Source: an uncultured delta proteobacterium
GTDB taxonomy: Bacteria > Desulfobacterota > Binatia > UBA9968
NCBI GenBank assembly: GCA_963745835.1
Contig: CAVUZH010000024.1
Coordinates: forward strand, 96,001 to 160,000
Length of the DNA: 64,000 nt
Reading direction: 5' to 3'
The position numbers and the translations under genes were made by a program. The notes beneath the pieces are model-generated. The model ran no database searches, was not told the origin of the DNA, and worked only from the letters and a program-made list of their open reading frames with translations. Shown piece by piece: positions 13,880 to 64,000 of this stretch (position 1 is the stretch's first letter; the number at the start of each line of letters is the position of its first letter).

Positions 13880-13893
13880 AGAGGAATGAAGTA

Positions 13894-14707: not shown

Positions 14708-14735
14708 AATATATTGGATCCTGCTCTATTGTCAA
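14708..14735 (-). promoter_or_regulatory. Putative sigma70 promoter for the yceD-rpmF-plsX-fab operon
   Basis: Minus strand TTGACA-16 nt-TATATT, about 30 nt before the yceD start. Confidence 0.6.
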
Positions 14736-15051: not shown

Positions 15052-15079
15052 TTGACAAGCCCGCAATCATCAATAGAAT
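15052..15079 (+). promoter_or_regulatory. Putative sigma70 promoter for the HtrA-like gene
   Basis: TTGACA-16 nt-TAGAAT. Confidence 0.6.
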
Positions 15080-15180
15080 TCAGGCGGAGACCTTTAAACC
15101 GGCGTAAAGCCGCGCAGAATAGTACTGCGCGACATGCTCGCGCTAACAGCAGCGAGTAAAATCGCATAAGGAGCAGGACT

Positions 15181-16071
15181 TTGAACGGCCATCTCGGCTT
15201 GATCCATGCCATCATTCCGGCAACAGTAGACATCCGCGTATCGATCCCAGAAGATCATCCGTCCACCAGGAACCTAGGCTCGGAGCGCACCGGATCCGGA
15301 ACCATAGTCGATCCGGAAGGGTACGTTTTAACGGTTAATTACGTGGTGACCGGAGCTTCGTCCATTACCGTCACCGTAGCCGAAGGAGAAGAGTATCCGG
15401 GTGAGATCGTCACACAGGATCTCGATAGCGGACTCGCGCTTTTAAAAATCCCTGCTCGCGGGCTGCCTTTCCTCAAGCCGGCAAGCGAACCGGCCGCACT
15501 TGGCCAGGCTAGCCTCATCGTTGCCAGCAGCGGAAACAACGAACGAAAAGTGAGCGGAGGCTATGTAACTTCACTGGAACCGTACGACGGCCATTGGGAA
15601 TATATGCTCGACCAAACGGTGAGAGTGACAGCCGTCAATCCGGGCTTCGGCGGCGGCACATTGGCGAATTTCAAAGCAGAGATGTTGGGCGTGGTTTCCT
15701 TGAATCTTGCTGATGTTGGAAAATTCTCATTGGCCATTCCGATCCGCTATTACTTCGATCAGGAGCAGGCGTTCAGACAACGTTCCCTTGTCAGTCAAAA
15801 GCCTTGGTTAGGTTTCTATCCCCACTTGCTCGCTGGACATGTGGTTGTCGGCGGAGTGACGGAAGGAAGCCCGGCTGACCGTCAGGGACTTAAAGAGGGC
15901 GACATCATTCTGGATGTTGAGAAAACGCAGATCCGCTCGCGGCGGCAACTCTATCAGGAGCTTTGGAAGAAGCGACCGGGAGAACGCATCTGTCTGCGTG
16001 TCTTAAGGAACGAAACCAGTATCGAGCTAAGCTTAATCGGCGCCGACCGCCGCAATCGCTATGGCAGCTAG
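15181..16071 (+). CDS. S1C/HtrA-like trypsin-fold plus PDZ protein, catalytic triad degenerate
   Basis: GSGTIVDPEGYVLTV, NPGFGGG, PDZ segment PWLG..SPADRQGLKEGDII; AAGGAG RBS before TTG. Confidence 0.8.
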   Translation: MNGHLGLIHAIIPATVDIRVSIPEDHPSTRNLGSERTGSGTIVDPEGYVLTVNYVVTGASSITVTVAEGEEYPGEIVTQDLDSGLALLKIPARGLPFLKPASEPAALGQASLIVASSGNNERKVSGGYVTSLEPYDGHWEYMLDQTVRVTAVNPGFGGGTLANFKAEMLGVVSLNLADVGKFSLAIPIRYYFDQEQAFRQRSLVSQKPWLGFYPHLLAGHVVVGGVTEGSPADRQGLKEGDIILDVEKTQIRSRRQLYQELWKKRPGERICLRVLRNETSIELSLIGADRRNRYGS

Positions 16072-16535
16072 TCGTCGCCACCGACCTTCTGTAATTTACC
16101 TTCTCCAGTCACCTTGATGGCGGTTGCCGGAGTATAGGCTTCGGGTTCATAGTTGATCAAGGCTTTATCGCTCTGCTGCAAATCTTTTAATTTGACTCTG
16201 CTGCCGGCTTTTTCGATATTCGTTTTCTCATCAACTCCAACCACCTCCTCGCGAACCTTTCCCTTGCGCTCCACTTGGAAGGTAATCGTTCGCTGGCCGA
16301 CGCTGCTGATGACACCCTCAACTTCGACAGCCTTGGATTTGGTTTCTTTTGTTTCGCTCTTTGTGGCTTTTGCCTCTGCCGGTGTCTTTGCTTCGGCGAC
16401 AGGTTTGGCCTGCGCCGGTGTCGGTTTTTGCGCGGGTGCGGCCGTTTGTTCCTGAACAGATGAACACGCGATTAAACCCGCAGCGAGCAGGAGCGAGCCG
16501 GTTGATAACGTCAAGAAATCAGTTGTTCGCTTCAT
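16068..16535 (-). CDS. Hypothetical lipoprotein with an Ala/Lys/Pro linker and small beta-barrel-like domain
   Basis: Lipobox AGLIAC; GGAGGA RBS; VEGVISSV...LKDLQQSDKALINY. Confidence 0.7.
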   Translation of the reverse strand: MKRTTDFLTLSTGSLLLAAGLIACSSVQEQTAAPAQKPTPAQAKPVAEAKTPAEAKATKSETKETKSKAVEVEGVISSVGQRTITFQVERKGKVREEVVGVDEKTNIEKAGSRVKLKDLQQSDKALINYEPEAYTPATAIKVTGEGKLQKVGGDD

Positions 16536-16685
16536 TACATTCCTCCGAACCTTTTTACCCGAAATTCACGAATATGATCGCCGAAAATTTCTAGAACTTA
16601 AAGCATACTTCATTTCAAATTGTCAAGGCGCGTCGGGAACTATGGCGTTGAGAAAAGCTCCAAAACAACATACGAGTGAGAGCGC

Positions 16686-17129
16686 ATGACTTCGAGCAAA
16701 CCGAACAATTTAAATGTGACAACCTATCGAGTCATCTATGGTGATACAGATCAAATGGGCGTGGTCTACTACGCCAACTACCTACGCTGGTTCGAAAGAG
16801 GCCGCGGTGAGTTTCTGCGTGCAAGCGGAATCCCGTACGCAACCATCGAGCGACGGGGCATGCATTTTCCAGTTGCGGAGCTGTCATGCCGATACTTCAG
16901 ACCAGCTCGTTACGATGATCTGATTGTCATCGAGACACGGATAGCTTCGGTCAGCCGCGCATCATTGACATTCACCTACCGAATCATGCGCGAGGCTGAA
17001 GCCACGCGGCTGGCCTCCGGCTCGACCAAGCACGCCTGCGTCGATGGTCAGGGCAGGGTCATGAGAATTGAGGAGGAGCTGATGAAGGCGCTCGAAATCA
17101 TGATTTGCCCACCCGAAGACACTGCTTGA
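16686..17129 (+). CDS. Acyl-CoA thioesterase, YbgC/FadM hotdog family
   Basis: RVIYGDTDQMGVVYYANYLRWFERGR. Confidence 0.92.
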   Translation: MTSSKPNNLNVTTYRVIYGDTDQMGVVYYANYLRWFERGRGEFLRASGIPYATIERRGMHFPVAELSCRYFRPARYDDLIVIETRIASVSRASLTFTYRIMREAEATRLASGSTKHACVDGQGRVMRIEEELMKALEIMICPPEDTA

Positions 17130-17165: not shown

Positions 17166-18335
17166 TTACAAGTGATCAGGGACAGGTTCACTGGCCTCAC
17201 GAAGAGCCTCCTCAATCTCGCTTTTAACCTCCGGGTTAGCTTCTGAAAGCAATTTCTGCCGCAGTGTCGCGAGCGCCTCAGATGTACCAATCCGGCCCAG
17301 CGCCCATGCGACATGACCGCGAACTAGTGGCTCTTCGTCATTCAGTGCCTCGGTCAGCGCCGGCACGGCTTCGGGCGCGCGATTATTGCCCAGCGCCACG
17401 GCTACATTGCGCAAAAATCCACGTCGTTTTGCCCGGACAATGGGACTGCCGCGAAACCGCCGGCGAAATTCCTCTTGGTCGATCGACAGCAGCGCAACCA
17501 AATCGGGAGCATAAAGGCCTTGGCGCGGCAGGTAAGACGGTTCATCGGTGGAATTCGCTTTAACATTATAAGGACATACTTCCTGGCAGATGTCGCAGCC
17601 GAAAATGTGATTACCGATAAGGGGTCTCAGATGACGTGGAATAAAACCCTTGAGCTCGATCGTAAGATAGGAGATGCAGCGACGCGCATCCAAAAGATAG
17701 GGCCCGATGAAGGCGCCGGTTGGGCAGGCTTTTAGGCACAGGTCACATTGACCGCAGCGGTCACGAATGGCCTGATCATAAGCAAGGGGCAGACTGGTAA
17801 ACAGCTCACCAAGGAAAAACCAGGAGCCTTTGTTCGGCGAAATCAGCTGAGTATTTTTCCCGATCCATCCTATGCCGGCACTACCCGCAAAGTCCCGCTC
17901 TAGAATCGGGCCGGAATCGACGAAAGTTCTGCCTTCCACCGTCTCGCCGCCAATCTCACGAAGAAATACGAGCAGGGTTTCCAGTTTATCCCGGATAATC
18001 TCATGATAATCATCACCCCAAGCATAGCGCGAGATCCAGCCGCGCCCGCGTTCTGACGGGGTTGGCCGTTTAAACGGCGTGTAGTAATTCATCCCCACGG
18101 AAATGATTGACACCGCCCAGGGGACAAGCAGCCGTGGATCGCGCCGCAAAAGCTCGGTTCGCTCCATATACTCGAGATGACCGTGAAGTTTCTTCCGCAG
18201 CCAATCAGCGAATGACTCCTCGTGCGGCGGCACCCGCACTGGAGAGATTCCAACGAGTTCAAAGCCGAGCCTTTGCGCTTCATTCTTGATGCGCTGAGAC
18301 AGCTCGGCCAAATTCGGCTCAGCGGTGGAAATCAT
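17166..18335 (-). CDS. queG: tRNA epoxyqueuosine(34) reductase with C-terminal HEAT repeats
   Basis: SRYAWGDDYH, VDSGPILER, CGQCDLCLKACPT, RCISYLTIE, FGCDICQEVCP. Confidence 0.96.
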   Translation of the reverse strand: MISTAEPNLAELSQRIKNEAQRLGFELVGISPVRVPPHEESFADWLRKKLHGHLEYMERTELLRRDPRLLVPWAVSIISVGMNYYTPFKRPTPSERGRGWISRYAWGDDYHEIIRDKLETLLVFLREIGGETVEGRTFVDSGPILERDFAGSAGIGWIGKNTQLISPNKGSWFFLGELFTSLPLAYDQAIRDRCGQCDLCLKACPTGAFIGPYLLDARRCISYLTIELKGFIPRHLRPLIGNHIFGCDICQEVCPYNVKANSTDEPSYLPRQGLYAPDLVALLSIDQEEFRRRFRGSPIVRAKRRGFLRNVAVALGNNRAPEAVPALTEALNDEEPLVRGHVAWALGRIGTSEALATLRQKLLSEANPEVKSEIEEALREASEPVPDHL

Positions 18336-18398
18336 AACGCCAGAAAACTCCGGAATAAGATTGACGCGGAACTACAACTGGAGAAGACGGCCAAGCGC

Positions 18399-18848
18399 TC
18401 AGTGAAGCGGGCCGCCGCCGCGCGACCCGGTGACAGTGGAGTCCAACAATGGGCGTCTGCCGGCAAAGCCCTCCTCAATTCTGTGCCAGTAGGCAATCTC
18501 AGGTTCGCCGTATTGCCAACAAAGAAAGACAATCTCTTCTCCCAATAAACAGGGAAAATCGAGCAATCCTTGTTCTACGCCTTTGCACACACAGCCATGT
18601 TGTTGAATTTCATTGACAGCGTCGTTGATCTGCTTGATCAAGGCGGCGATCTCATCGTTCCGCTGTAAACGGCGCATCAGGTTGGGCGTTTCCGGGTCGA
18701 TCTGCTCCGCGCGAATCACTATTTCGCTCTTGGCCCGCAGGCGTCGTATGATCTCCAAAATGCGTTCGATCGTCGGACGCACTATAGGCAAAAGGGCGTT
18801 CGCTTCGTTGATCGTGAACAATCTGGAATAAGGCGAAGATGAATCCAT
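18399..18848 (-). CDS. DUF2203 family protein
   Basis: FTINEANALLP, GLLDFP, FLCWQYGEPEIAYWH..EGFAGRRP; likely start ATG 18848. Confidence 0.85.
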   Translation of the reverse strand: MDSSSPYSRLFTINEANALLPIVRPTIERILEIIRRLRAKSEIVIRAEQIDPETPNLMRRLQRNDEIAALIKQINDAVNEIQQHGCVCKGVEQGLLDFPCLLGEEIVFLCWQYGEPEIAYWHRIEEGFAGRRPLLDSTVTGSRGGGPLH

Positions 18849-18885
18849 ATCATCCACTTTGGTCGTCGGCACTTCAACGAGAAAG

Positions 18886-19750
18886 TTATAGCCGCAGGCC
18901 GGTTCGAACAGCTTTAAGTAATGCAATGTTATCGGAATGGCCGGTCATGTGAGCCGTGATTTTGCCGCGAATGGGTCTTCCCAGCAGATAAAAATCCCCG
19001 ATAATGTCAAGAATTTTATGACGCGCCAGTTCCTCCGGAAAGCGCAAGTCTGTGTTGACGATCTTCTCATCATCGATCAAGATACAATTACTAAGCTTGC
19101 CTCCGTTGATCAAGCCGAGCTTTTGCATTTTCTCCATATCGCGCAGAAAACCGAAGGTCCTTGCCGGCGCAATTTCTTCTTTGAAGGAAGTCGGACTCTG
19201 ATGTGTGAATAGTGTATTCCTGCACGCCGACCGGTTTCGGATAGTTCAGAACGTAGTGGACCGAAAACGTCTCCGCTGGTTCAATACTGATCCATTCTCC
19301 TGCGTCGTCACCGATGCGATAAGGACGATCAATGACGATTCTTGACCAGCTTTCGTCTTGCTCGTGCAGCCCAGCTTCCTCGATGAGTTCGCAAAACTCC
19401 GCCGCCGATCCATCTAAGATCGGAACCTCGCCTTGAACTTTCACCAGCAAGTTCGTAATTCCGTAACTATGGAGGACCGCCAAAAAATGCTCTACGGTCG
19501 CAACCGTAAAACCACGATGGCTCAATGATGTCGCAAATCCCGTTGATCCGACATAATCTAAATGCGCGGGTACGCTCACATCACCTGAGATACCCTCGAA
19601 TAAGATGCCGCTATTTGGCGGGAGCGGATGCAGAATCAATCCTGTTTTGATACCTGAATGCAATCCTTGACCTGAACTCACCACGCTTTTTCTTAAGGTC
19701 TTTTGTCGGATCGGTTCGGCGGATGTGACTATCCGCGGAGCTGTACTCAC
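18886..19750 (-). CDS. lpxC: UDP-3-O-acyl-GlcNAc deacetylase LpxC, +1 frameshift near 19211; probably fused to the upstream receiver domain
   Basis: QKTLRKSVVSSGQGLHSG, ATVEHFLAVL, EVPILDGSA; after the frame change EIAPARTFGF, RHKILDIIGD and TGHSDN. Confidence 0.93.
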
Positions 19751-20207
19751 TGAGTCGGTCTCCTCGACCCCATGGCGCTGTGCCGATTTCGGAGAGGCTC
19801 TGAGCTACAGGGAGCTCGCCCAGAGCGCGTTGCACGGTATGAAGCAGGCCGTCGAGCGAGACCGGCTTTTCGATAAAATCGAAAGCGCCAAATTTAGTTG
19901 CGGTCACCGCCGTGTGGATATTTCCGTGCCCGGAGATCATCACGACATTGGTTGAAGGCTTCTTGCTCTTGATCTCCTTGAGCAAGCCAATACCATCGAT
20001 TTTCGGCATCCAGATGTCGAGCAGCACGAGCCCGGGTTGCTCCGCTTCGATCATTTCCAGGACGCAAGTGGCATCGGCGGTATCGAGTACCCGATATCCC
20101 TCGTCCGTCAGCACTTCTTTAACCGACTCCCGAACCTTGTCCTCATCATCGACAACAAGGATGGTTTTCTGAGATGATAACTCCTTCACCGCCCCTCCAT
20201 TTTTCAT
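19611..20207 (-). CDS. Response-regulator receiver (REC) domain, NtrX-like, no output domain; likely the N-terminus of LpxC
   Basis: ILVVDDE, LVLLDIWMP (phospho-Asp), MISGHG, GAFDFIEKP; sequence after about 19800 is non-conserved and overlaps lpxC. Confidence 0.88.
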   Translation of the reverse strand: MKNGGAVKELSSQKTILVVDDEDKVRESVKEVLTDEGYRVLDTADATCVLEMIEAEQPGLVLLDIWMPKIDGIGLLKEIKSKKPSTNVVMISGHGNIHTAVTATKFGAFDFIEKPVSLDGLLHTVQRALGELPVAQSLSEIGTAPWGRGDRLSEYSSADSHIRRTDPTKDLKKKRGEFRSRIAFRYQNRIDSASAPAK

Positions 20208-22438
20208 AGCTGCGCAGCCTTCCTTTTAAACTCGCGTAGCGCGCCCTGCTCCCGCACCGGAAACTCTATCACGAACCTGGTGCCGCGCGGTTCGTTGTTC
20301 CGTACCCGAATATAACCGCGATGATCTTCGACAATTTGATTGACGATGGTTAGCCCCAGGCCGGTACCCTGTTTTTTAGTGGAAAATCCAGGCTCGAATA
20401 TTCTAACTCGAGCTTCCGCCGCCATGCCGCAACCATCGTCGGCAACTTCAAGGTAGACCGTGTTCCGAGTGCGATCATAAGCACTCGATATCTGCACATG
20501 GCCGCCGTCGCCAACGGCGGCCACGGCGTTGTCTAATAAGTTAATCATTACCCGTTTGATTTGCTCCCGATCGAGCTCTAGCGCCGGCAACTCTCCCGGC
20601 CGGAATTCAAAATCGATATGGTTATGTCCTTCCTTAAACAGGAATAGCGCGTCCTGGACAATCACGTTTAGGTCGTTGGGCACCGGCTGAGCCGTAGGTA
20701 GTCTTGCGAATTGCGAAAACTCATTCACCAGATTCTTGAGCTCGACCACCTGCTGGATAATCGTCGTCGTGCATTTGTCCAGTACCGCGCCGTCCCCTTG
20801 CAACAGTTTAGCATAGCGTTTGCGCAGTCTCTCGGCCGAGAGCTGTATCGGCGTGAGCGGATTTTTGATTTCGTGAGCGATTCGCCGCGCCACTTCGCGC
20901 CACGCTTCCATCCTCTGTACTTTTTGAATCTGGGTAATGTCTTCCAGAAAAATCATGATACCTAAGCTGTCATTAGCATCATCTCTGAGGGTAGCGGCGG
21001 TCGCAAATACGGTAAGGAGATGGTCTGGTAGCTGTATCTGCAATTCAGTCTCGCTGCTTTCGCGATCTTTGAGGTTGTCGATCAAGTCGCGCATGACCAT
21101 TAGCGGCGCGGTTTCAAACGCTTCCCTGTAGTATCTTCCGAGAGCAGCAGAACCATCCACACCTAACATTTGTTCGGCCGCCTTGTTCCAAGAAGTGATC
21201 TTCCCATTCGGGTCGACAGCAATCACTCCAGCGGTAATATTAGCGAGAAGTGTTTCAACGAACTTGCCGCGACGCAACAATTCCAGGTTGCTCTTCTTTA
21301 AGTCTCGGGTCATCTGGTTGAAAGACTCAACCAAGGTCCCTAACTCGTCATCGCCGGCCGCCTCAATTTGATAATCCCAGTTGCCATGAGCGACTTCGTG
21401 AGTCCCCGCCGCCACCTGCTGAATCGGGATCGTGATTCCTTTGGCAAGATAAAGGCCGAACCAAGTCGCGGCGAAGATAATCACCAGCGTAATTAATAGC
21501 AGGGTCAGAATGTAACTGTTTTTCACCGGGTTCTTCAGAAAACCAAGGTGCTTGTACTGCTCATAGGACCGGGAGATTTCGAGGGCGCGTTTGGTGATGC
21601 TCTTCGGCACGTAATAATCGACTACCACGACTCCCTGAATCCGCTTGCCGCTGTCATAGATCGGAACACCGCCGCGAATAACGTCGCCCTCGCCGAAAGC
21701 CTGAGTTCGGGTAACTTCCAGGCCGCGCAGCGCCCGGTTAAGGAAATCGGCTTCAGCCTTGATGCTAACTCCAGTGGGTACCTGGTCATTGAAAGCCACT
21801 ACTACCGGCAGGTGATCTGGTGAAAATAATTCCACAGTGCCGAGATTGTACTCACGCTGCTTGATCTGGATAAATTCTTTAAGATCGCTCCGCCGTCCGG
21901 TCTCGAACAGCCCCTGTTCAGTGACGCGCCGGCTTAGCTGCCGTGCATAGAACAGCGCGTTGTTTGCCGAGTTTTGATAATAGGTCTGGCCGATTTCCAA
22001 AGATCCCTGAAGCGCGGTCTCGACCTGTATATCGAACCACCTTTCAAAGGAGCGGGTGACGAATCCCCCGGCAATGACGAACAGCAACAGTGTCGGAATC
22101 AGCGATAGGCCGACAAATGCAATCACCAGGCGAACTCTCAGTCGTGAGCCCAGGATCCGCCGTTTGCGTTCGAATACCAGCTTCACCAGGTTTCTGACGA
22201 CCAGAAAAACCAGGAGAATCAGAAGAATGATGTTGATGTTGATTAAGAGAAAGAAAACTATGTTATTGCTGAGAGAATATTCCGACGAGACATCGGGAAG
22301 CTGCACCTCGAAGAATGCAAAGGCCAGCACCACCAGTGAAGTGATGAGAATCGCCAGTCCTTCACGCTTTCGTCGTTTAGTTTCATCCAACGTGGGCGTC
22401 TCGCTGATCTGCTGTTGGGTTTTGAAGGTTTTGCTCAT
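20204..22438 (-). CDS. NtrY-like membrane sensor histidine kinase (TM-HAMP-PAS-HisKA-HATPase)
   Basis: AWREVARRIAHEIKNPLTPIQLSAERL is the NtrY-type H-box; HAMP DELGTLVESFNQM; GTGLGL. Confidence 0.92.
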   Translation of the reverse strand: MSKTFKTQQQISETPTLDETKRRKREGLAILITSLVVLAFAFFEVQLPDVSSEYSLSNNIVFFLLININIILLILLVFLVVRNLVKLVFERKRRILGSRLRVRLVIAFVGLSLIPTLLLFVIAGGFVTRSFERWFDIQVETALQGSLEIGQTYYQNSANNALFYARQLSRRVTEQGLFETGRRSDLKEFIQIKQREYNLGTVELFSPDHLPVVVAFNDQVPTGVSIKAEADFLNRALRGLEVTRTQAFGEGDVIRGGVPIYDSGKRIQGVVVVDYYVPKSITKRALEISRSYEQYKHLGFLKNPVKNSYILTLLLITLVIIFAATWFGLYLAKGITIPIQQVAAGTHEVAHGNWDYQIEAAGDDELGTLVESFNQMTRDLKKSNLELLRRGKFVETLLANITAGVIAVDPNGKITSWNKAAEQMLGVDGSAALGRYYREAFETAPLMVMRDLIDNLKDRESSETELQIQLPDHLLTVFATAATLRDDANDSLGIMIFLEDITQIQKVQRMEAWREVARRIAHEIKNPLTPIQLSAERLRKRYAKLLQGDGAVLDKCTTTIIQQVVELKNLVNEFSQFARLPTAQPVPNDLNVIVQDALFLFKEGHNHIDFEFRPGELPALELDREQIKRVMINLLDNAVAAVGDGGHVQISSAYDRTRNTVYLEVADDGCGMAAEARVRIFEPGFSTKKQGTGLGLTIVNQIVEDHRGYIRVRNNEPRGTRFVIEFPVREQGALREFKRKAAQL

Positions 22439-55284: not shown

Positions 55285-55989
55285 CTAACTGAGAAAGAAC
55301 GTAAGGCCCAGCATAAACAAACTGCTGTTGATACCGGCATTTTTGCCGTGAATACCCGCGTTGGAAATATGATGAAAGCGCCACTCTCCGGTCAATGCGG
55401 TGCGTTGGCTTATGAAGTAGTGAAGACCTACGCCTGATTGCACGATGAAATTCAAACCATCGGCTTGCCGAGCCAGATCGGCGTCCAAAGCGATGAAGCC
55501 GACACCGGCATGGAAGAACGGAATAAACCGAGTGCCGGTCAAGAAATTATAGCGCAGCCCCGGTGCGATACCTCCGGCGATTCCAGGGTTGGGTTCGAAC
55601 ATGTAGAGGAAGGTCCCTTCGAGTATTAATTCGAAGTTCCCCCGGTACCAACTGCGTCCTCCCAACGGATCCGAAATGCCGATGCCCCAGCGCGGAGTGG
55701 CATAGACGAATTGAATATCTTCCAACACGGGGGCGTGACTACCGCCAACCGGCAGTGCATATCCATAGCCGCCACTGATCCCCAACGATTGCTTACCATA
55801 CCCGAACGCCGACTCGTATGTGCGCGGCTGGTCTGCGGCATCCGCGGCCACAGCTTCGCCATTTTTCAGCGCAAATCCCGAGAGAGTAATCGATGCAACG
55901 ATTAGAAGGATGACGTGTCGAAGGAAGCTTGAATAAGTGTTTGGTCGTCGGTCGAAGATGCGGTTTTGATACCACGAGTCGTTGATCAC
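55285..55989 (-). CDS. Acyloxyacyl hydrolase / PagL-like lipid A 3-O-deacylase outer-membrane barrel
   Basis: Amphipathic beta strands, LRYNF, PFFHAGVG, catalytic HHISNAG..NAGINS; start uncertain. Confidence 0.8.
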   Translation of the reverse strand: MINDSWYQNRIFDRRPNTYSSFLRHVILLIVASITLSGFALKNGEAVAADAADQPRTYESAFGYGKQSLGISGGYGYALPVGGSHAPVLEDIQFVYATPRWGIGISDPLGGRSWYRGNFELILEGTFLYMFEPNPGIAGGIAPGLRYNFLTGTRFIPFFHAGVGFIALDADLARQADGLNFIVQSGVGLHYFISQRTALTGEWRFHHISNAGIHGKNAGINSSLFMLGLTFFLS

Positions 55990-56299: not shown

Positions 56300-57178
56300 T
56301 CATTTCCACAACGTCAGCAGCAACACGCCGCCGACAATCATGGCGGCGCTGATGACGATTCGAAGAGTGACACGCTCGACATCGCGTAAAAAGAGCGCGC
56401 TAAAGATCAGTGAAAAGAACGGGCCGGTGCTGCTTATCGGAATCACCACAGAAACTTTACCCAAATCCAAGGCATAGTAGATGCAGACCATGCCAAGGCT
56501 GATGGTAATCCCAGCCGCAAAAAACCACCAGAAGCATTTCCGGTTCATTTTCCAGGTTTCTTGACTCTTCTCCACATACCAGAGCGTCAACAGCGACACC
56601 ACGAAGGAAGAAGTTGCGGTAACCGCCGCGGCTAGAAACGGATGGGGAACGGCTGCCAAACCAAATTTGCGCACCACCTGAGAGGCGCCCGCGAGTGCCG
56701 AGGCGCCGATGGGATACCATAAAAAGATGGCGGAGCCCGCGAGTTTCACTGAACCGCTGCGCCAGGATAATAAGGTGATGCCAGCGATAATCATCAAGGT
56801 GGCGACAACGATTGGCAAAGTGATTTGCTCGCCGAGAAAGATAATCGCCATCATCGCGCTGAACAGCGGGGTGGTGGCGCGGATGGGATCGGTGATCGCC
56901 ATCCCCAGCGCATCGATGCCTTTGTAGGTTAACAATCGGGTCAATCCCGGTTGGAAAAATCCGACCACGACAAAAATCAAAATTGACGCGCTAGTTAAAG
57001 ACGACAGCGGCACGAACAAGATCGACACGCTCCAGAGAAATACAATGTTAATCAACAGGCTACTGATCACGCCGGTGGCAGGATTGGAGTAGCGCATCGC
57101 CTTTTTGGTGAGCATGTTATGGAATGCGAATAGAAAAGCGTTCGCCAGGGCGTAGAATTCAGCGGGGATGGCAGCCAT
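56300..57178 (-). CDS. DMT/EamA family transporter
   Basis: About 10 hydrophobic segments in two repeats; TTPLF..FLGEQ; ALDLGKVSVVIP..FLRDVERVT. Confidence 0.88.
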   Translation of the reverse strand: MAAIPAEFYALANAFLFAFHNMLTKKAMRYSNPATGVISSLLINIVFLWSVSILFVPLSSLTSASILIFVVVGFFQPGLTRLLTYKGIDALGMAITDPIRATTPLFSAMMAIIFLGEQITLPIVVATLMIIAGITLLSWRSGSVKLAGSAIFLWYPIGASALAGASQVVRKFGLAAVPHPFLAAAVTATSSFVVSLLTLWYVEKSQETWKMNRKCFWWFFAAGITISLGMVCIYYALDLGKVSVVIPISSTGPFFSLIFSALFLRDVERVTLRIVISAAMIVGGVLLLTLWK

Positions 57179-57421
57179 GTTGCGTGAATTATTATTTGGG
57201 GGAAATATGCCGGGATTGTAGACGTTCGTGATCTGCTGCTTTCGACGTGCACCTGAGCTATACAGTCTTTAATATCAGAGGACAAATAATCGTGCCATCA
57301 AAGGGTTATTATCTAGACGCTCAGCGCTCCAGAAATTGATTCTTTGATTCCCCTTCCTGCAAACAGGAAAAAAATTAGATTAGAGAACATCGAACGAGTT
57401 GAGAGCTTTAATGGCCGTCTC

Positions 57422-60202
57422 ATGAAAAGAACCTTCTTGCTTTCTTTACTGCTCGCTCTGCTCTTACTTAGCACCTATGCCTCGATCAGACAGGCTCAGG
57501 TCGGTAGCTGCCTCGCCTATGCGTTTGGCGGCTTGCGCGAAGTCGCGCAGGAACGCTCGACGCGCTTTCTCGGAAAAGTTCACGAGGACAGCGCACGCTG
57601 CCGCGGCGGCGAGTCAGCGGTAGCTTGGCGCAACACACCGTGGATCGACTGGCAACGCTACTCGGCCGCGGCGGGCCCTGAAAGTCGGACCCGCGGTTGG
57701 GCCGGCAACCTCGGTTTTTTTAGTCCGGACAACCGCGGCCTTAACGGCGCGCTGCTCGATCTCGAGTACCAGCGTCTTGAATTGCTCAAGTTTAATCTGT
57801 TCGACAACAGCGGCACTTTCCCGACTTATATGCGCGACTGGCACAGCCCATCGGATGTCACAAAGACCTGGCCCGAATTGCGGCTGCCGAAGGACCATCC
57901 GCTCTACAAAGAGGTCGGCGGCGATGGTCCTCAACTCTGTTCCGGTGAATTAATACGCTTTCGCACGATCAGCGGGATTTGCAACGACATCACCAATCCG
58001 CTGATGGGCTCTACCGGCCAGCCGTTTGCGCGCAACGTTGAATTCGAGAGCACGTTTCCGGAGCTGGCTATGGACCCGGTTGCCGCAAATCGCCACGGCG
58101 GTCGAATCGGTTTGTTAAAGCCCGACCCGCAGCTCATTAGCCAAAAATTATTCAGCCGCCCATTAGTAGGAACATGCGATGGTTACGAGCTAGGAAATTC
58201 GACTGTAGCGAGTTGTGCCTATCAAAAAGCGTCACACTTAAATTTGCTCGCAGGATTCTGGATCCAGTTCGTGACCCACGATTGGTTTTCTCATCTAGAC
58301 GAAGGACAAAACCAATCGGCAATGATGGCGATGGGCTGCGATGATCACGAAGGAGCAAACGATCGAAGTAGGTTGGCGGCCGCGCGAGCCGAACCAGCCG
58401 GCTGCCGCCCCACCGATCGCATCGATAAAAGCTTGATCGCTCAGGACCTGCCGGCGCCGACCTTCAAGCTTGGCAAAAACTCCTACATGACGCGTGCGCA
58501 CAGAACCACGGTCAACAAAGTCACCGCGTGGTGGGATGCTTCGCAAATTTACGGATATGACGAGACATCGCGCCGGCGGGTAAAGCGCGATCCGCGCGAT
58601 CCGGCCAAGCTATTGCTGGAGCCGGGAATAACGGCTAGGGAAAACACGCCGGTTTATTTGCCGAGGTTGAACTCTGCCGATCCCACGAATCCACAGTGGA
58701 TCGGCCAGGAAGCTGTCGCCTTCCCCGACAACTGGAACATCGGTCTGAGTTTTTTCCACAATGTATTCGCGCGCGAGCACAATCTTTTCGTCGACGCCTT
58801 TCGCCTGGAAATGAGAAAAAACCCGGATGCCGATTCCGGATTACGACGACCGGTACAGCCCGACAAACTGATCAGTAACAAGGAGGTCACAGCCGACGAG
58901 CTCTTCGAAGTGGCGCGTCTAGTGATTGCAGCCGAGATTGCGAAGATCCACACCATCGAGTGGACCACCCAGCTGCTTTACAACAAGCCGGTCTACCTCG
59001 CTATGAATGCCAATTGGTCGGGTCTGTTTGACGAGCACCCTTTGGTCAATGCCGCTCTCGAGCGGGTAATCCAGCGGTTTACTCAATCCGATAATGGCAG
59101 AAAAGCCACTGGATGGTATGCCGCTTTCGCCGCCGGACCGGGGATCGTCGGTCTCGGCAATACGCAAGCCGACGTTAGTGCCGGGGTCAACCACTTCGGT
59201 TCGCCTTTCAGTTTTCCTGAGGAGTTCATCAACGCCTACCGCTTGCATCCGATGCTTCCCGACTTCATCGAACTCCGCGAGCTGAACCACCGAAACGTTA
59301 TCAAGTCGAAGATTGCAGTTTCCGAAACTCTGCGCGGCAAGGCGACTCAAGCGATGCATCAGCACGGGCCGGCCAACTGGGCGCTCTCATTGGGCCGGCA
59401 GCGACTCGGCAAGCTGACATTGCGTAACCATCCGAAGTTTTTACAAAGCCTATCCATGCCTCGCCTAAAAGGTGGCAGCGGTAAAATAGATGTCGCCGCT
59501 TTGGATCTGATCCGCGACCGGGAACGCGGCATACCACGTTATAATGAATATCGACGCCAGTACGGTCTCAAACAGCTGACCAAGTTTGATGATTTCATCG
59601 ACCCGCAGGTTTCAAAGAACTCGGCCGAATGGACAGAGCAGCAAAAGCTCGTGGAGCTACTCCGGGAAGTTTATGGACAACATCGATGTGCTTCGTCGAA
59701 GATCATCACGACCGCGCAGAAAAATGACGACGGCAGCCAAATCAACGACTGCCTTGGCCATCCCAACGGCAGCCTCGTGGATAACATCGAGGACGTCGAC
59801 GCTATGGTAGGATGGCTCGCTGAATTCGCGCGCCCTCACGGTTTTGCCATCTCGGAAACACAATTCCAGGTTTTCATTCTTAACGCATCCCGGCGGCTTT
59901 TTAGCGATCGCTTTTTAACATCGAGTTTTCGACCGGCGTTTTACACCAACCTAGGCTATAACTGGGTAAACAATAACGGTCCTGGCGCAAAAATCTTCGA
60001 ACCGAAGAAAGCCAACGGACATACGGTCGAAGTGTCGCCATTAAAGCGCGTGCTTCAAAGAACGGTTCCAGAATTGCGCGAAGAACTCGAACAGGTCGTA
60101 AATGTTTTCGATCCCTGGACCCGGGACCGCGGCGAATACTACTCGCTCGCTTGGAAGCCGCGGCGCGGCGCAGAAGCGGACTTATCCTTCAAAAGCAATT
60201 AG
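57422..60202 (+). CDS. Secreted peroxidase-cyclooxygenase superfamily heme protein, fatty acid alpha-dioxygenase-like
   Basis: Signal MKRTFLLSLLLALLLL; FRTISGICN, WIQFVTHDW, WWDASQIYG, AKIHTIEWT, EEFINAYRLHPMLPD, DRERGIPRYNEYRR, GFAISETQFQVFILNASRRLFSDRF. Confidence 0.88.
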   Translation: MKRTFLLSLLLALLLLSTYASIRQAQVGSCLAYAFGGLREVAQERSTRFLGKVHEDSARCRGGESAVAWRNTPWIDWQRYSAAAGPESRTRGWAGNLGFFSPDNRGLNGALLDLEYQRLELLKFNLFDNSGTFPTYMRDWHSPSDVTKTWPELRLPKDHPLYKEVGGDGPQLCSGELIRFRTISGICNDITNPLMGSTGQPFARNVEFESTFPELAMDPVAANRHGGRIGLLKPDPQLISQKLFSRPLVGTCDGYELGNSTVASCAYQKASHLNLLAGFWIQFVTHDWFSHLDEGQNQSAMMAMGCDDHEGANDRSRLAAARAEPAGCRPTDRIDKSLIAQDLPAPTFKLGKNSYMTRAHRTTVNKVTAWWDASQIYGYDETSRRRVKRDPRDPAKLLLEPGITARENTPVYLPRLNSADPTNPQWIGQEAVAFPDNWNIGLSFFHNVFAREHNLFVDAFRLEMRKNPDADSGLRRPVQPDKLISNKEVTADELFEVARLVIAAEIAKIHTIEWTTQLLYNKPVYLAMNANWSGLFDEHPLVNAALERVIQRFTQSDNGRKATGWYAAFAAGPGIVGLGNTQADVSAGVNHFGSPFSFPEEFINAYRLHPMLPDFIELRELNHRNVIKSKIAVSETLRGKATQAMHQHGPANWALSLGRQRLGKLTLRNHPKFLQSLSMPRLKGGSGKIDVAALDLIRDRERGIPRYNEYRRQYGLKQLTKFDDFIDPQVSKNSAEWTEQQKLVELLREVYGQHRCASSKIITTAQKNDDGSQINDCLGHPNGSLVDNIEDVDAMVGWLAEFARPHGFAISETQFQVFILNASRRLFSDRFLTSSFRPAFYTNLGYNWVNNNGPGAKIFEPKKANGHTVEVSPLKRVLQRTVPELREELEQVVNVFDPWTRDRGEYYSLAWKPRRGAEADLSFKSN

Positions 60203-60282
60203 GCAAACTCGCGAGACGAGGAGCCGGCTCGGGGTTCTACTCCGCCGGAAATCGAGCCGCAATAACCAGATCTGATAAGTAG

Positions 60283-62136
60283 CTAACGATTGTCAGCCAG
60301 GATCGCGTCCGCAGCCTTTTCACCGATCATGTACACGGCGCTGACGATAAAGAAGCCTGGAATGCGCGGAAATACCGAAGCATCGACAACCCGTAGCCCT
60401 CTGGTGCCGTGCACCTGGAAATCGCTCGTTAGCACCCCGCCTTTTTCTTTGGCCCCGATTGGGCAAGTGCAGGAAGCATGGTGACCCCAGGCGTTGTTGC
60501 GCACGTAATCGCCAAGCTCGGCATCCGATTGAACCTGACTACCCGGCAATTCCTCCTCTGAAATGACCTTCTCTGTTCTGAGCGCTGCTGTCATTTTGCG
60601 CACGAACTTGATGCCTTCGACAACGCTGTCGAGGTCCTCTCCACTCGTGTCGCTACCCTCATCGAAATAGCGAAAATTGATTGTCGGGGTATCTCTTGGA
60701 TCTGACGAGCGCAAGCTCACCGCCCCCGCGTTGTTGCGGGTATGCGCTTTCAACACCACCCAACTCAAATAGTTGTGGTGCGCTGATATCAGTTGTGAGT
60801 ATCCCGGGAAATAGCCCTTGAATTTGCCGATAAAGCCGAGGCAGAACAGATCCGGGACGGTACGACTCGGCTGGGATTTCTTAACCACCACCAGCGCTGC
60901 GCCGGCAGTGGCATACACACCCTTCCTATCTGCGGCCCATTCTCGATACTGCGGATCGCTGCTATCGAACTTTGCCGCTGCCAATACATTCCAGTCCTGC
61001 GTCATGCGATTGACGACACTCACCTCATAACGGTCCTGCAGATTCCTGCCGACGCCGGGAAGGTCGATCCGCACTTTGATGCCGTGAGATTGCAAGTCCT
61101 CTCGTGGGCCTATGCCGGACAGCATGAGCAATTGGGGGGTATTAAAAGCTCCGCCGCACAAGATCGTCTCTCGCGCAGCAAACGCTTGGCGTATTTCTCC
61201 TGGCTCGCTGCTGGGATCACTATGGGCGCGGTACAGACGCTCCCCTTTGAGGTACTCGACGCCTAATGCGCGATTATCCTGGTCGAACAGCACTCGCGTC
61301 ACCAGAGCGTGAGGCTCGATGTGCAGCTTACGGGGGTATCTCTTGGCCACGTCCAAGACGCGCTCGCGAGTGCCGATGCGCCCCTGATTGCACGTGGTCA
61401 GAGGTGTGTAGCGCACGCCGAACGAATTAGACTGCACCAAGCGCCAGTCATTGGGATCGTGCTGCGATTTGATCGACCATCTAACTTGCGTCAGCGGATC
61501 TCCCATTTCTTTGAATGCCTTCAGCGCCGATCCCTTGATCATGTCCATCATGTCTCGATCGCCCAGCGCCAATCTGGGATCTCTTCGCTCGGTAGTCAGC
61601 CAACCGCTGAAACCATGGCGCGTTGGATTTAATCCCAAGATTTTCTTTAGCCAGCGATAGGGAGGTCGATGGCGGCAGTCTTCCAGACGCTCGAAGTACC
61701 GGCGCATGTTTTCAGCTCGCCAGGAAGGATCGCCCGTCAGGTCGGCGATATCGTCCCAATCTTGATTGTGCGGATAGACCAGAATCATTGCGTTATGGCT
61801 CGTGCAACCGCCCAACGCGCCGGCGCGAGGATAAAGGACGCCGTCTCTCATGGCCGTGAATTTAGAGTCTTTCTTCTGGCGCTCGTCATCATCGTAGTGG
61901 CGCACGAAGAAATCCCACCTCAAGGCAGGATTCTCAGATGCGAAAGGATGAAAGGCAGGGACTTGGTAGTCTTCCGGCAAACGTGTGCCGGCTAGACCTA
62001 GGGGATCGCCGCCCGCTTCCAGAAGCAAGACCGTGCGTCCGGCTTCGGCCAATCGCGCGGCGACTGTGCCGCCGCCGGCGCCCGATCCGACGACGACGTA
62101 ATCATATCCATTGGATGGCAAATCCGCGGCAGACAT
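60283..62136 (-). CDS. GMC family FAD oxidoreductase
   Basis: VVGSGAGGG, LLLEAG, LGGCTSHNAM, TPQLLMLSGIG, GVGRNLQD, GHHASCTC, GLRVVDASVFP, GEKAAD. Confidence 0.93.
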   Translation of the reverse strand: MSAADLPSNGYDYVVVGSGAGGGTVAARLAEAGRTVLLLEAGGDPLGLAGTRLPEDYQVPAFHPFASENPALRWDFFVRHYDDDERQKKDSKFTAMRDGVLYPRAGALGGCTSHNAMILVYPHNQDWDDIADLTGDPSWRAENMRRYFERLEDCRHRPPYRWLKKILGLNPTRHGFSGWLTTERRDPRLALGDRDMMDMIKGSALKAFKEMGDPLTQVRWSIKSQHDPNDWRLVQSNSFGVRYTPLTTCNQGRIGTRERVLDVAKRYPRKLHIEPHALVTRVLFDQDNRALGVEYLKGERLYRAHSDPSSEPGEIRQAFAARETILCGGAFNTPQLLMLSGIGPREDLQSHGIKVRIDLPGVGRNLQDRYEVSVVNRMTQDWNVLAAAKFDSSDPQYREWAADRKGVYATAGAALVVVKKSQPSRTVPDLFCLGFIGKFKGYFPGYSQLISAHHNYLSWVVLKAHTRNNAGAVSLRSSDPRDTPTINFRYFDEGSDTSGEDLDSVVEGIKFVRKMTAALRTEKVISEEELPGSQVQSDAELGDYVRNNAWGHHASCTCPIGAKEKGGVLTSDFQVHGTRGLRVVDASVFPRIPGFFIVSAVYMIGEKAADAILADNR

Positions 62137-62406
62137 TTTTATTGAAGCTCGCCGGATAACATTGCTAGCGCGGATTATTCATTCTTCGAAAAGCACGACA
62201 CCGTGTTGCCGGGGAGTCAGCCTCGGAGCGAGCGGGCGGAGGAACGTAAAAGCTGCGCCTACCTGTAACGGAATTGGTAATCGGCTTCGTTTTCTTCCTG
62301 CTGTACACTCTACCACTTATATTTAGTCGGCGGCCTCAAGAAACAGGCCCATTGCTCGCGCTCGCAAACTCGCTCCTCGGACATGGTTCTGTGAATAAAT
62401 TTCGTA

Positions 62407-64000
62407 TTAGAACGTCTTCAAGAATTCGATCAACGCTCGTTTATCTTCGTCGCTCAGCGGCGTCTCTTCCTTCAGCAAACTCGTGCCGAAGTAGTGGCCC
62501 CGGTTGACGACGAAATCCGGACACTTGCTGACCTGCAAGAGATCAGGCACGAGGTTTTTAAACACCTCGGCCGCTTCCTGTTCGCTCTTGCCTTCTACCG
62601 CCTTGAGATCGGCTTTCATCTTCAATAACAGCTTAGCCAAATCGATTTTGCTGCTCTCTAAGTCGATATTCGTAAGCAGATTCACCGGAGTGCCCTTCGG
62701 AATGGGGCCGATTTGCACCCCTTCTTCATTAAACAGCCAAGGCAACCAGCGCGCTCCCAAATCATTCCAGCTGAGCAGATGGTTCAGAGAAGCGGGTAAG
62801 AACCCGGGGGCGAGTTTGATATAGCTCGTCGCGGTGGTGCGATAGATGAACCCCGGCACCTTGTCAGCGAGAATCGGGTCTTTGTCACGCTTTTCCGGCC
62901 ACAGCATTTTTTCTATCGAATCATTGAACGACTCCATGCGCGCCTCCACGGATGGTGACGGATTGAACTTGCCGACTGAATTGTTGAGCAGAAAAGGCGC
63001 CGTTGACCACAAGCTAATTAGCGAGGGCACGCGGGTATAGCCGCGCCCATTGCCGGGCATCTCGTATTCCTGCGGGCTGCCGTCGATCGGGTTGTGCACG
63101 GTAATCTTGCCCACCGATGGCAAGTCTTTATAGGTTTGCGATGAGTAATTGTCCCAGATGTTGCCGCCGAGAGCATTGGTCGCCAGCGGACTGCAAGCGT
63201 TGGTCTGGAGCAAGGTAACAGGAATGCGGCGGTCCGTGGACAAATAATTATCGACGAGAAAATCATCCGCCATCACCATCTCAGTCATTTTTTTCTTGAA
63301 GTCGTCGGTCTTGGTCCATTTCCAGTATTGCTCCCAATCCCGTTCATCCACACCAGCGGACGCTGCGGGAATCTTGCTCGAATGACAGCGCGCGCAGGTC
63401 TCCGCGAACACCGTCTTGCCGCGAGCCAACTGAGCTTGATCCTTGGTCAGATATTGCTCGCCACCCGGAACATTCTTGAGCAGATCCGGCTGCGCCGTCT
63501 TGAGGAAGAACAGCGCAACATCCGGAGTCTGGGCCACGGTTGCGTTCCAGTAGCTCGAATTTTTTTCGGCATCCTCAATCCTAATGGGCGTGATTTTTTT
63601 TCCGCCTACTAGAGCATTGAAATGCAGCAGCCACTCTTCGCTGAACAGCCCAATGTTGATGAACACGCGATTCAGCGCCCCAAGCACGCCGACGGAATCC
63701 GCACCGTCTTTTAGGATGCGCGGCGTCCATACGGTGTCGGGTGGTTTATGGTACTGCGCCAAAGCCGCGGTTTGCTTGAAGTCTTGGAACTGCTTGTTCT
63801 TGACTCCTCCGCCGGCGAGTTTTTCCTCTCCCCAGCGTTCGGCCGCCTTTAAACGCGCCGCGACGCTGTAGACGGCGTTCATTGTGCGCGGGTTATTGAT
63901 GTAGTCGGTGGAAATAAACGATGTGTCTAAAGTACCCGGCAATGACGTATGGAGCAGTTGCTGGATGAAATTGGCGTCATCCTTTTCCCAGAAAAGAATC
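62407..64000 (-). CDS. Large cytochrome c protein, RoxA/CcP-like C-terminal half; 5' end outside window
   Basis: Frame is open to the window end (ILFWEKDDANFIQQLLHTSLPGT...); ARGKTVFAETCARCH (CxxCH); RVPSLISLWSTAPFLLNNSVG; NRGHYFG..LSDEDKRALIEFLKTF. Confidence 0.85.
   Translation of the reverse strand, partial: ILFWEKDDANFIQQLLHTSLPGTLDTSFISTDYINNPRTMNAVYSVAARLKAAERWGEEKLAGGGVKNKQFQDFKQTAALAQYHKPPDTVWTPRILKDGADSVGVLGALNRVFINIGLFSEEWLLHFNALVGGKKITPIRIEDAEKNSSYWNATVAQTPDVALFFLKTAQPDLLKNVPGGEQYLTKDQAQLARGKTVFAETCARCHSSKIPAASAGVDERDWEQYWKWTKTDDFKKKMTEMVMADDFLVDNYLSTDRRIPVTLLQTNACSPLATNALGGNIWDNYSSQTYKDLPSVGKITVHNPIDGSPQEYEMPGNGRGYTRVPSLISLWSTAPFLLNNSVGKFNPSPSVEARMESFNDSIEKMLWPEKRDKDPILADKVPGFIYRTTATSYIKLAPGFLPASLNHLLSWNDLGARWLPWLFNEEGVQIGPIPKGTPVNLLTNIDLESSKIDLAKLLLKMKADLKAVEGKSEQEAAEVFKNLVPDLLQVSKCPDFVVNRGHYFGTSLLKEETPLSDEDKRALIEFLKTF

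Follow-up and report, generated by a model that had tools for sequence, protein, structure and literature searches.

The end of a 64,000-nt stretch of DNA from an uncultured delta proteobacterium of the Binatia (assembly GCA_963745835.1, contig CAVUZH010000024.1, positions 96,001 to 160,000; hereafter the window) encodes three large redox proteins, namely a haem peroxidase resembling the alpha-dioxygenases (alpha-DOX), a flavoprotein of the GMC oxidoreductase family and a large di-haem c-type cytochrome, which we refer to as PEROX, GMC and BIGCYT. An earlier note, made from the sequence alone, had placed three adjacent large redox genes at 57422-64000 with the peroxidase convergent on the cytochrome-GMC pair. 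The open reading frame (ORF) listing and Pfam agree with this arrangement, with PEROX on the plus strand and the other two genes on the minus strand:

57422 (ATG)..60202, plus strand: PEROX, a 926-aa secreted haem peroxidase, alpha-dioxygenase-like (ORF listing, An_peroxidase domain, PDB matches)
60203..60282, no strand: convergent gap of 80 nt between the PEROX stop and the GMC stop
60283..62136, minus strand: GMC, an FAD oxidoreductase of 617 aa without an N-terminal signal peptide (Pfam, PDB, orthologue alignment)
62137..62406, no strand: spacer of 270 nt between the cytochrome and GMC genes
62407..63999, minus strand: BIGCYT, the C-terminal 530 aa of a di-haem c-type cytochrome lipoprotein of ~798 aa, whose N-terminus and first haem motif lie beyond the window end

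These are genuine genes, and chance ORFs are excluded. Pfam identified An_peroxidase (4.8e-66) in PEROX and both GMC_oxred_N (3.7e-21) and GMC_oxred_C (6e-30) in GMC, while the cytochrome c matches of the window cytochrome were weak and confined to the region round its one in-window CxxCH. The PEROX ORF has an alternative upstream start (TTG 57344, same stop at 60202, plus strand); ATG 57422 is the likely start, since a 100%-identical database protein has 926 aa and the homologues, of 917-964 aa, cover 97% of the longer ORF.

When compared with all PDB sequences, PEROX gave strong matches solely to the alpha-DOXs of rice (4kvj, 3.8e-50) and Arabidopsis (4hhr, 4.8e-46); the next match was lactoperoxidase (8.9e-9), and no cyclooxygenase was found in this search at E <= 0.001. 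PEROX belongs to the same superfamily as these plant enzymes (rice 4kvj/4kvk/4kvl, Arabidopsis 4hhr/4hhs) and the cyanobacterial alpha-DOXs CsDOX, CalDOX and LepDOX described in PMC8720084. According to that paper, H157 and H382 of rice alpha-DOX are the distal and proximal haem ligands, Y379 bears the radical with F375 and F552 stacked on it, H311 and R559 bind the carboxylate, T316 positions the alpha-carbon, and the channel is lined by W315, F549, I553 and A556. In our HMMER alignment, whose chain indices are shifted by 3 relative to the rice numbering of PMC8720084, all 12 alignable residues (H157, H311, W315, T316, F375, Y379, H382, F549, F552, I553, A556 and R559) are identical in PEROX, where they correspond to H286, H510, W514, T515, F602, Y606, H609, F815, F818, I819, A822 and R825. 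The distal and proximal histidines, the catalytic tyrosine, the stacking phenylalanines, the carboxylate-binding His/Arg and the alpha-carbon-positioning threonine are conserved in PEROX as in alpha-DOX. Nine positions (H286, H510, W514, T515, F602, Y606, H609, R824 and R825) were also checked in an alignment of 17 family members with 65-85% identity, and were invariant in 17/17. The signal peptide and these residues lie at the following positions:

57422..57481, plus strand: probable Sec signal peptide of PEROX, MKRTFLLSLLLALLLLSTYA (read from the translation)
58277..58279, plus strand: His286, equivalent to the distal haem His157 of rice alpha-DOX (alignment; 17/17 invariant)
58949..58966, plus strand: His510, Trp514 and Thr515, equivalent to rice His311 (carboxylate binding), Trp315 and Thr316 (alpha-carbon positioning) (alignment)
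59237..59248, plus strand: Tyr606-Arg-Leu-His609, equivalent to the catalytic Tyr379 and proximal His382 of rice alpha-DOX (alignment)
59891..59896, plus strand: Arg824-Arg825, with Arg825 equivalent to the carboxylate-binding Arg559 of rice alpha-DOX (alignment)

The opening residues from ATG 57422 read as a Sec-type signal, and the description of the peroxidase as secreted and alpha-dioxygenase-like is thus borne out by a signal-like N-terminus, the top PDB matches and the kept catalytic residues. What sets PEROX apart from the characterised alpha-DOXs is its cleavable-looking signal peptide, an N-terminal extension of ~200 conserved, Cys-rich residues and its linkage to cytochrome and flavoprotein genes. 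Internal insertions are also present, and Pfam detected no domain besides An_peroxidase in the protein. The family is large, with 2368 protein matches in a database search. According to PMC8720084, alpha-DOX-like sequences had been noted in five bacterial phyla, the cyanobacterial ones alone having been characterised.

Among solved structures GMC is closest to chloramphenicol oxidase (8b7s) and to choline oxidases and dehydrogenases, with E-values of about 1e-42 to 1e-45. The protein stays below the cut-offs of the curated choline dehydrogenase BetA models, scoring 212.8 bits with TIGR01810 (cut-off 732.1) and 250.1 with NF002550 (cut-off 605). Its diagnostic motifs are as follows:

62068..62088, minus strand: GSGAGGG, FAD-binding motif at residues 17-23, 16 residues past the start codon (translation)
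60469..60489, minus strand: WGHHASC, whose second His (H553) is equivalent to the catalytic His466 of choline oxidase (alignment; 29/29 orthologues)
60343..60360, minus strand: PGFFIV, with Phe596 at the place of choline oxidase Asn510, the His/Asn partner of the catalytic His (alignment; Phe in 29/29)

GMC carries both GMC domains and the N-terminal FAD motif, and shares these and the catalytic histidine with choline oxidase (2jbv, 3nne), choline dehydrogenase (9lq0) and chloramphenicol oxidase (8b7s). A further common feature is the His of GGCTSHNA, which aligns with His99 of choline oxidase, presumably the flavin-linking residue. Unlike these enzymes, the window GMC has a phenylalanine partner, is ~70 residues longer and is encoded after a di-haem cytochrome gene. 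Of the catalytic pair it keeps H553, with Phe596 in the partner position, and among 29 orthologues the His-His is found in 29/29, the Phe in 29/29 and the His of GGCT-x-H in 28/29. The earlier characterisation of GMC as atypical therefore holds throughout the orthologues. A signal peptide can be excluded for the window protein, as its ORF is already maximal before the FAD motif. Four of the 29 orthologues (L029, L040, L050 and L080) begin with an RR motif and a lipobox-like Cys, that is, a putative Tat-lipoprotein signal, and the others, that of the window among them, do not.

The full length of BIGCYT is known from a locus designated L002, where the protein has ~798 aa and opens with MEIRRLNLSALAILIILGAAGC, which reads as a lipoprotein-type signal. 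Its haem c motifs, CGFCH and CARCH, lie about 239 residues apart in the full-length orthologue P0121, and both are invariant in 14/14 orthologues. Two features fall within the window:

63382..63396, minus strand: CARCH, the second of the two haem c motifs and the sole one in the window
62971..63012, minus strand: LWSTAPFLLNNSVG, a degenerate form of the 'W-x-x-A-P-Y/F-L-H-N-G/N-S' signature of RoxA-like/CcP di-haem proteins (compared with the A3 and A4 consensus sequences)

The signature was compared with WLRAPYLHNGSVP in the neighbouring RoxA-like di-haem proteins (alignment A3) and with TAPFLHNNSLG in the wider BIGCYT superfamily (alignment A4: 60 sequences, comprising 13 cluster cytochromes and 47 diverse, more distant representatives); in BIGCYT a Leu replaces the His. 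The di-haem cytochrome c peroxidase model NF040606 (CytoC_perox) matched the window cytochrome partially, with 43.9 bits against a cut-off of 150, and the curated RoxA/RoxB/RoxC models matched neither the window fragment nor P0121. Sequence searches of the PDB, with a single query and with a 14-sequence profile, returned nothing beyond haem-motif noise and no RoxA match. A profile-profile comparison with the neighbouring di-haem family (hhalign) aligned 24 columns round the CxxCH at a probability of 85%, and Pfam RoxA-like_Cyt-c (PF21419) was found in 21/60 A4 sequences, all of them among the 47 distant relatives and none among the 13 cluster cytochromes. One A4 row from the representative library, P0242, looked in Pfam like a cytochrome-flavoprotein fusion and was rejected, being a read-through from the cytochrome into GMC garbled by a frameshift. 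The wider superfamily is very large: among 1.84 billion representatives a profile search retrieved 2930 clusters at E<=1e-3, of which 979 reached E<=1e-30, and their lengths are about 700-1300 aa.

An AlphaFold2 model of BIGCYT from the 60-row alignment reached a pLDDT of 91.5 and a pTM of 0.90 (a model from the shallow 14-row alignment, with a pLDDT of 45.8, was discarded). In a Foldseek search of the PDB the top match of this model was RoxA (4b2n; E 3.5e-3, probability 0.92, TM 0.30/0.36). MauG and bacterial cytochrome c peroxidases came next, at E 0.6-5, and none reached E<=0.001. Of the label RoxA/CcP-like, what stands is a distant superfamily resemblance, given the partial peroxidase score, the missing PDB sequence match and a top Foldseek match to RoxA that is weak; BIGCYT lies outside the RoxA and CcP families as curated. 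Like RoxA (4b2n) and the Pseudomonas proteins PA2077/PA2078, BIGCYT is large, monomer-sized and periplasmic with two CxxCH motifs, and its spacing of about 239 compares with 199 in RoxA, 245 in PA2077 and 235 in PA2078 as given in PMC4496055. It differs from RoxA in the absence of a significant sequence match, in the low TM of 0.30-0.36, in being a lipoprotein of ~798 aa, in the His-to-Leu change of the signature and in always being paired with a GMC flavoprotein. We know of no such pairing for RoxA or PA2077/78.

The earlier note had also held that the cluster runs past the window edge. Locus L002, whose proteins are 92-97% identical to those of the window, shows this continuation and adds the full-length cytochrome, two di-haem proteins and a 145-aa protein (s145) in one minus-strand unit:

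L002 unit position 1, minus strand: s145, a 145-aa protein
L002 unit position 2, minus strand: di-haem protein of 506 aa with an N-terminal membrane anchor
L002 unit position 3, minus strand: di-haem protein of 486 aa with an N-terminal membrane anchor
L002 unit position 4, minus strand: BIGCYT, the two-haem lipoprotein
L002 unit position 5, minus strand: GMC, the FAD oxidoreductase

The 486-aa and 506-aa proteins are tandem paralogues (17230-20247, minus strand) with 40% identity. Each has two CxxCH motifs and the Pfam domain RoxA-like_Cyt-c, and their NF040606 scores of 187 and 156 bits exceed the cut-off of 150. The profile of this family matched RoxA 4b2n at 1.9e-17 over ~50 residues, and the RoxA/B/C NCBIfam models matched over short stretches, with 55-90 bits against cut-offs of 900-1000. 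The tandem arrangement recalls, by analogy, PA2077/PA2078 of Pseudomonas aeruginosa. A PmbA/TldD gene lies upstream of the unit.

The small protein s145 has no Pfam match even at E 5 and no NCBIfam match; its nearest named Atlas cluster, GXWXG/DUF4334 (0.87), is a lead only. A complex prediction for GMC and s145 of L002 scored 0.05, which gives no answer and has no bearing on binding either way. Near PEROX, s145 occurs in 20/78 loci, and a DyP-like protein and its two companions in 11-13/78. Outside the window's clade we observed a cytoplasmic-looking module of a ~145-aa protein, a 434-aa protein, a distant DyP-type peroxidase of ~503 aa and a ~402-aa protein (L078, 461-5019; also L030, L050, L059, L062, L066, L069, L072 and L076). 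The DyP-type peroxidase (TIGR01413 1.4e-18, below the cut-off) stands in these lineages in place of the L002-type di-haem proteins. The 434-aa and 402-aa proteins have no Pfam match at E 1e-3, no NCBIfam match and no PDB match, and at E 1 one copy (c14) shows a single noise match of 0.16.

A pattern scan of one genome per species yielded 493 stretches encoding PEROX relatives. For the best 80, taken with flanks of at most 10 kb, partners were scored by tblastn with the window proteins and by ORF cluster membership. By tblastn, GMC is present in 31/80 PEROX loci and BIGCYT in 28/80, and all 28 BIGCYT loci also have an adjoining GMC; the three loci with GMC and without BIGCYT are the contig ends L001 and L018, plus L029. 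Among the 39 well-flanked loci, which have >= 8.4 kb on both sides of PEROX, 18 contain intact GMC and BIGCYT, two contain them in fragmented form and 19 contain neither. The fragmented loci L011 (about 15900-16900) and L070 (about 10500-15900), where PEROX, GMC or the cytochrome appear as tblastn fragments, may be pseudogenes or long-read frameshift errors. The co-occurrence elsewhere, whose absence the earlier note had named as a refutation, was thus found in 20/39 well-flanked loci, across several phyla and arrangements. As for the trio as such, it is a frequent configuration; the unit is larger, as the extra genes of L002 demonstrate, and PEROX lies without the pair in about half of these loci.

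BIGCYT is always immediately upstream of GMC on the same strand, mostly with a gap of 12-30 nt, and an order so fixed and tight suggests that the two act as one functional unit. Where the pair lies with respect to PEROX is variable. In the window's clade (Binatia) and in Bryobacteraceae it converges on PEROX at a distance of 3-250 nt. Elsewhere it lies upstream of PEROX, either as its immediate neighbour on the same strand (L019 and L020) or separated from it by 3-7 kb of other conserved genes (Methylomirabilota/Rokubacteria and Betaproteobacteria), and in one Nitrospira (L080) it is downstream and co-directional. In L078, a Nitrosomonas metagenome-assembled genome (MAG), one strand carries unbroken s145, the 434-aa protein, the distant DyP-type peroxidase, the 402-aa protein, BIGCYT, GMC and PEROX, and the GMC end lies inside the PEROX ORF as called, with an overlap of 38 nt. 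The linkage thus takes at least six arrangements in several phyla, and its persistence through so many rearrangements suggests a shared pathway. On a tree of 75 PEROX sequences (27 with the pair, 19 without, 29 unjudgeable), the known states require at least seven changes, a count that cannot separate gain from loss on what is a quick FastTree whose details are not to be over-read; all 12 judgeable rows of the window's clade have the pair. PEROX also occurs with other cluster genes and without the pair in L069, and within short available flanks in L053 and L063. The cultured Undibacterium strains (L034 and L038) have PEROX alone. Since companions can attend PEROX without the pair, PEROX is the hub of a modular cluster, of which the trio is one frequent configuration.

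Clues to the substrate come from the neighbours of PEROX. A Pfam scan of 118 flanking ORFs from the 19 pair-less loci found no common partner except phospholipase-type genes in three Terriglobia loci. In these loci (L057, L061 and L075, about 7000-14200 each), which lack GMC and BIGCYT, PEROX lies between a divergent patatin-like phospholipase of ~950 aa and a downstream phosphoesterase of PF04185, a family that includes phospholipase C. A patatin-like phospholipase adjoins PEROX in five loci altogether, and in the pair-bearing Bryobacteraceae L067 and L074 this gene precedes PEROX; it is thus in Acidobacteriota that phospholipase genes flank PEROX. The functions put forward in the earlier note, namely oxylipin or aldehyde chemistry, polymer attack and the generation and use of peroxide, are conjectural, and residue conservation and phospholipase neighbours together favour a fatty acid as the substrate. 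The complete alpha-DOX catalytic set in PEROX and these neighbours support the view that PEROX acts on a fatty acid or another lipid carboxylate, and that it does so in the cell envelope by chemistry of the alpha-DOX type.

We tentatively propose, while holding it to be somewhat short of probable, that the cluster encodes a fatty-acid alpha-oxygenation pathway, and that the flavoprotein-cytochrome pair deals with the hydroperoxides or aldehydes which it yields. The families, the conserved residues, the export signals and the gene linkage are observations, whereas the substrate, the handling of the products, any physical complex and the side of the membrane where GMC works are inferred. PEROX would be exported by its Sec signal and would work like the alpha-DOXs of plants and cyanobacteria: its haem would generate a radical on Tyr606, and this radical would take the C2 hydrogen from a fatty acid that His510 and Arg825 keep in place. 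Addition of O2 would yield a 2-hydroperoxy acid, which would give rise to a one-carbon-shorter aldehyde and CO2, or be reduced to a 2-hydroxy acid. The BIGCYT and GMC genes would form one transcription unit; GMC might oxidise the aldehyde, alcohol or hydroxy acid, and BIGCYT, as a di-haem protein of the RoxA superfamily, might accept the electrons of GMC or spend them in reducing the 2-hydroperoxide. In plants, alpha-DOX is paired with an aldehyde dehydrogenase, and the proposed pathway would be the equivalent of this pairing without NAD. A 2013 paper by Zhu et al. refers in its title to hydrogen peroxide activating alpha-DOX, and an H2O2-forming GMC that primes PEROX is thus another possibility.

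Two bacterial systems serve as precedents for the proposed pathway. PMC13049297 (citing Brash et al. 2014) describes a linoleate 10S-dioxygenase (10S-DOX) of Nostoc punctiforme together with a separate catalase-related hydroperoxide lyase, and PMC4496055 describes PA2077/PA2078 as di-haem, RoxA-like fatty-acid oxygenases of the P. aeruginosa oleate-diol synthase operon. The Nostoc system resembles our proposal in combining a bacterial cyclooxygenase-type haem dioxygenase with a separately encoded haem enzyme that consumes the hydroperoxide; it differs in having a catalase-related partner instead of a di-haem cytochrome c and GMC, and in its dioxygenase subfamily. The Nostoc pair is cytoplasmic. 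For the flavoprotein-cytochrome pair, the FAD-glucose and fructose dehydrogenases offer a comparison, being periplasmic complexes of a flavoprotein and a multi-haem cytochrome c (a tri-haem carrier) with a Tat-bearing small subunit. Similar to these, the cluster has adjoining flavoprotein and multi-haem cytochrome c genes, and some GMC orthologues have a Tat signal. Unlike in these complexes, however, no Tat-bearing small subunit was found in the cluster, the cytochrome is an enzyme-sized member of the RoxA superfamily, and most GMC orthologues lack an export signal.

Several observations weigh against the proposed alpha-oxygenation pathway. PEROX departs from the architecture of characterised alpha-DOXs, which have about 620-650 aa and no secretion signal, in being ~300 residues longer (926 aa), and four rice residues in N-terminal or loop regions (L53, R57, M325 and A331), including the channel residues L53 and R57, fall outside the aligned segments. 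The convergent orientation in the window means that PEROX and the pair are not co-transcribed there. The chemistry of GMC, which lacks the His/Asn partner, is unreadable from its relatives. With PEROX and BIGCYT exported and the window GMC devoid of a signal peptide, it is doubtful that the flavoprotein and the cytochrome form a periplasmic complex in the window lineage; the notion of an extracytoplasmic pathway accordingly fits PEROX and BIGCYT by their export signals and does not extend to the window GMC, its Tat-lipoprotein orthologues being limited to 4/29. Finally, the 19/39 well-flanked loci with no GMC or BIGCYT within 8-10 kb of PEROX have heterogeneous neighbours, so that the pair is either not obligatory or located elsewhere in those genomes.

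The absence of the pair from these loci also speaks for a reading in which two independent modules are often neighbours, PEROX being a stand-alone oxygenase and the cytochrome-GMC pair serving dehydrogenation or electron transfer for an unrelated alcohol or aldehyde. The separate transcription of PEROX in the window, the three loci with PEROX and other cluster genes and no pair in the available flanks (L069, L053 and L063) and the top family scores of GMC, which are for choline dehydrogenase/oxidase, are all consistent with it. We nevertheless regard it as distinctly unlikely, as the linkage is kept through at least six arrangements in several phyla, well beyond chance neighbourhood, and GMC and PEROX overlap by 38 nt on one strand in L078. 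A peroxide or lipid-hydroperoxide detoxification island, with PEROX as the peroxidase, the di-haem cytochromes as CcPs and GMC as an electron donor or merely co-regulated, would account for the gathering of peroxidase-type families, that is, An_peroxidase, the partial CytoC_perox match of BIGCYT, the two L002 proteins that pass the NF040606 cut-off (156 and 187 vs 150 bits) and the distant DyP-type peroxidase of other lineages (TIGR01413 1.4e-18), and several carriers are aerobic lithotrophs. PEROX keeps, however, the catalytic Tyr and the carboxylate-binding His/Arg, which are relevant to dioxygenation and not to simple peroxidase activity, the phospholipase neighbours better fit substrate supply, and BIGCYT is far under the CcP cut-off (43.9 vs 150 bits), and on this balance we consider detoxification unlikely.

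Two further explanations start from relatives of single components. The fact that RoxA is the best structural match of BIGCYT, together with the RoxA matches of the L002 di-haem proteins (1.9e-17 to 4b2n by profile, and the RoxA/B/C models over short stretches) and a molybdopterin aldehyde-oxidase-type gene near PEROX in about seven loci of the window's clade, such as L005, could point to an attack on unsaturated polymers or isoprenoid lipids, in which RoxA-like C=C cleavage gives aldehydes or ketones, GMC converts these to acids and alpha-oxidation by PEROX bypasses methyl branches. The matches to the RoxA models are, however, limited to ~50 residues round the shared motif, at 55-90 bits vs 900-1000, BIGCYT itself lacks a sequence match to RoxA, and polymer-binding or secretion features were not seen, which makes this explanation very unlikely. 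Mn(II) oxidation by an animal-haem-peroxidase-type enzyme with H2O2 supplied by GMC is brought to mind by the occurrence of the PEROX family in Candidatus Manganitrophus genomes (L022 and L031), and PMC9040806 cites haem peroxidase homologues as Mn(II) oxidases, reported for some heterotrophs. The Manganitrophus loci, however, have neither GMC nor BIGCYT nearby, and PEROX has no Pfam domain besides An_peroxidase and is specifically alpha-DOX-like with the fatty-acid-binding residues kept, so that we judge this idea extremely improbable.

The carriers of the cluster include Binatia, Methylomirabilota, Acidobacteriota, Betaproteobacteria including Nitrosomonas, and some Nitrospira. Here we speculate, as a possible but rather doubtful extension of the alpha-oxygenation proposal, that there might be a widespread bacterial pathway in which a secreted alpha-DOX makes 2-oxygenated fatty acids or aldehydes in the envelope and GMC, BIGCYT and s145 convert them without NAD; the result might be an alpha-oxidation cycle in the envelope that removes one carbon per turn and is wired to c-type haem, or else a family of bacterial oxylipin signals.

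The superfamily of each protein is already known, as are operons of a haem dioxygenase plus partner as a kind. What is new is the secreted long-form alpha-DOX, its conserved tie to an atypical GMC, a RoxA-superfamily di-haem lipoprotein and further uncharacterised proteins, and the taxonomic range. In the literature searched, whose coverage leaves out most subscription journals, we found no account of the cluster, of the function of the PEROX family or of an alpha-dioxygenase in these taxa, and no characterised pathway that explains the genes, which agrees with the view taken in the earlier note. Bacterial fatty-acid oxygenases are known from few cases, namely cyanobacterial alpha-DOX, 10S-DOX and the Pseudomonas oleate-diol synthase. 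The cluster supplies expressible candidates for new lipid chemistry of the envelope in bacteria abundant in soil and freshwater, nitrifiers included, as well as candidates for new aldehyde-forming biocatalysts. In addition, no characterised member was found in the BIGCYT superfamily (2930 clusters at 50% identity), and the cluster offers a first functional handle on this very large family of enzyme-sized di-haem cytochromes.

Two other genes lie beside PEROX in the window:

56300..57178, minus strand: EamA-family transporter, divergent from PEROX, a conserved neighbour in the window's clade
55285..55989, minus strand: PagL-like outer-membrane lipid A deacylase gene, upstream of PEROX

An EamA-family transporter gene is found next to PEROX in 15 loci and in the window, all within the window's clade. 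The PagL-like gene was considered as a conserved partner and rejected, being present in the window and in 2/80 loci (L002 and L003) only. The molybdopterin aldehyde-oxidase/xanthine-dehydrogenase-type gene (~778 aa), absent from the window itself, lies 1-2 genes from PEROX in L005-L009, L033 and L070 (e.g. L005 6199-8535).

An Rfam scan of 57000-64000 gave no match, and promoter-like and terminator-like sites near these genes showed no excess over chance, the PEROX/GMC gap being included in the terminator scan. The spacer between BIGCYT and GMC, at 270 nt, is longer in the window than in the orthologous loci (mostly 12-30 nt; 28 nt in L002). The ~240 nt that are extra in 62137-62406 are specific to the window: neither the rest of the window nor the 80 loci contain a second copy, and Rfam gave no match to them. 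A single terminator-like hairpin lies inside this spacer (62211-62196, minus strand), and may uncouple BIGCYT and GMC in the window genome.

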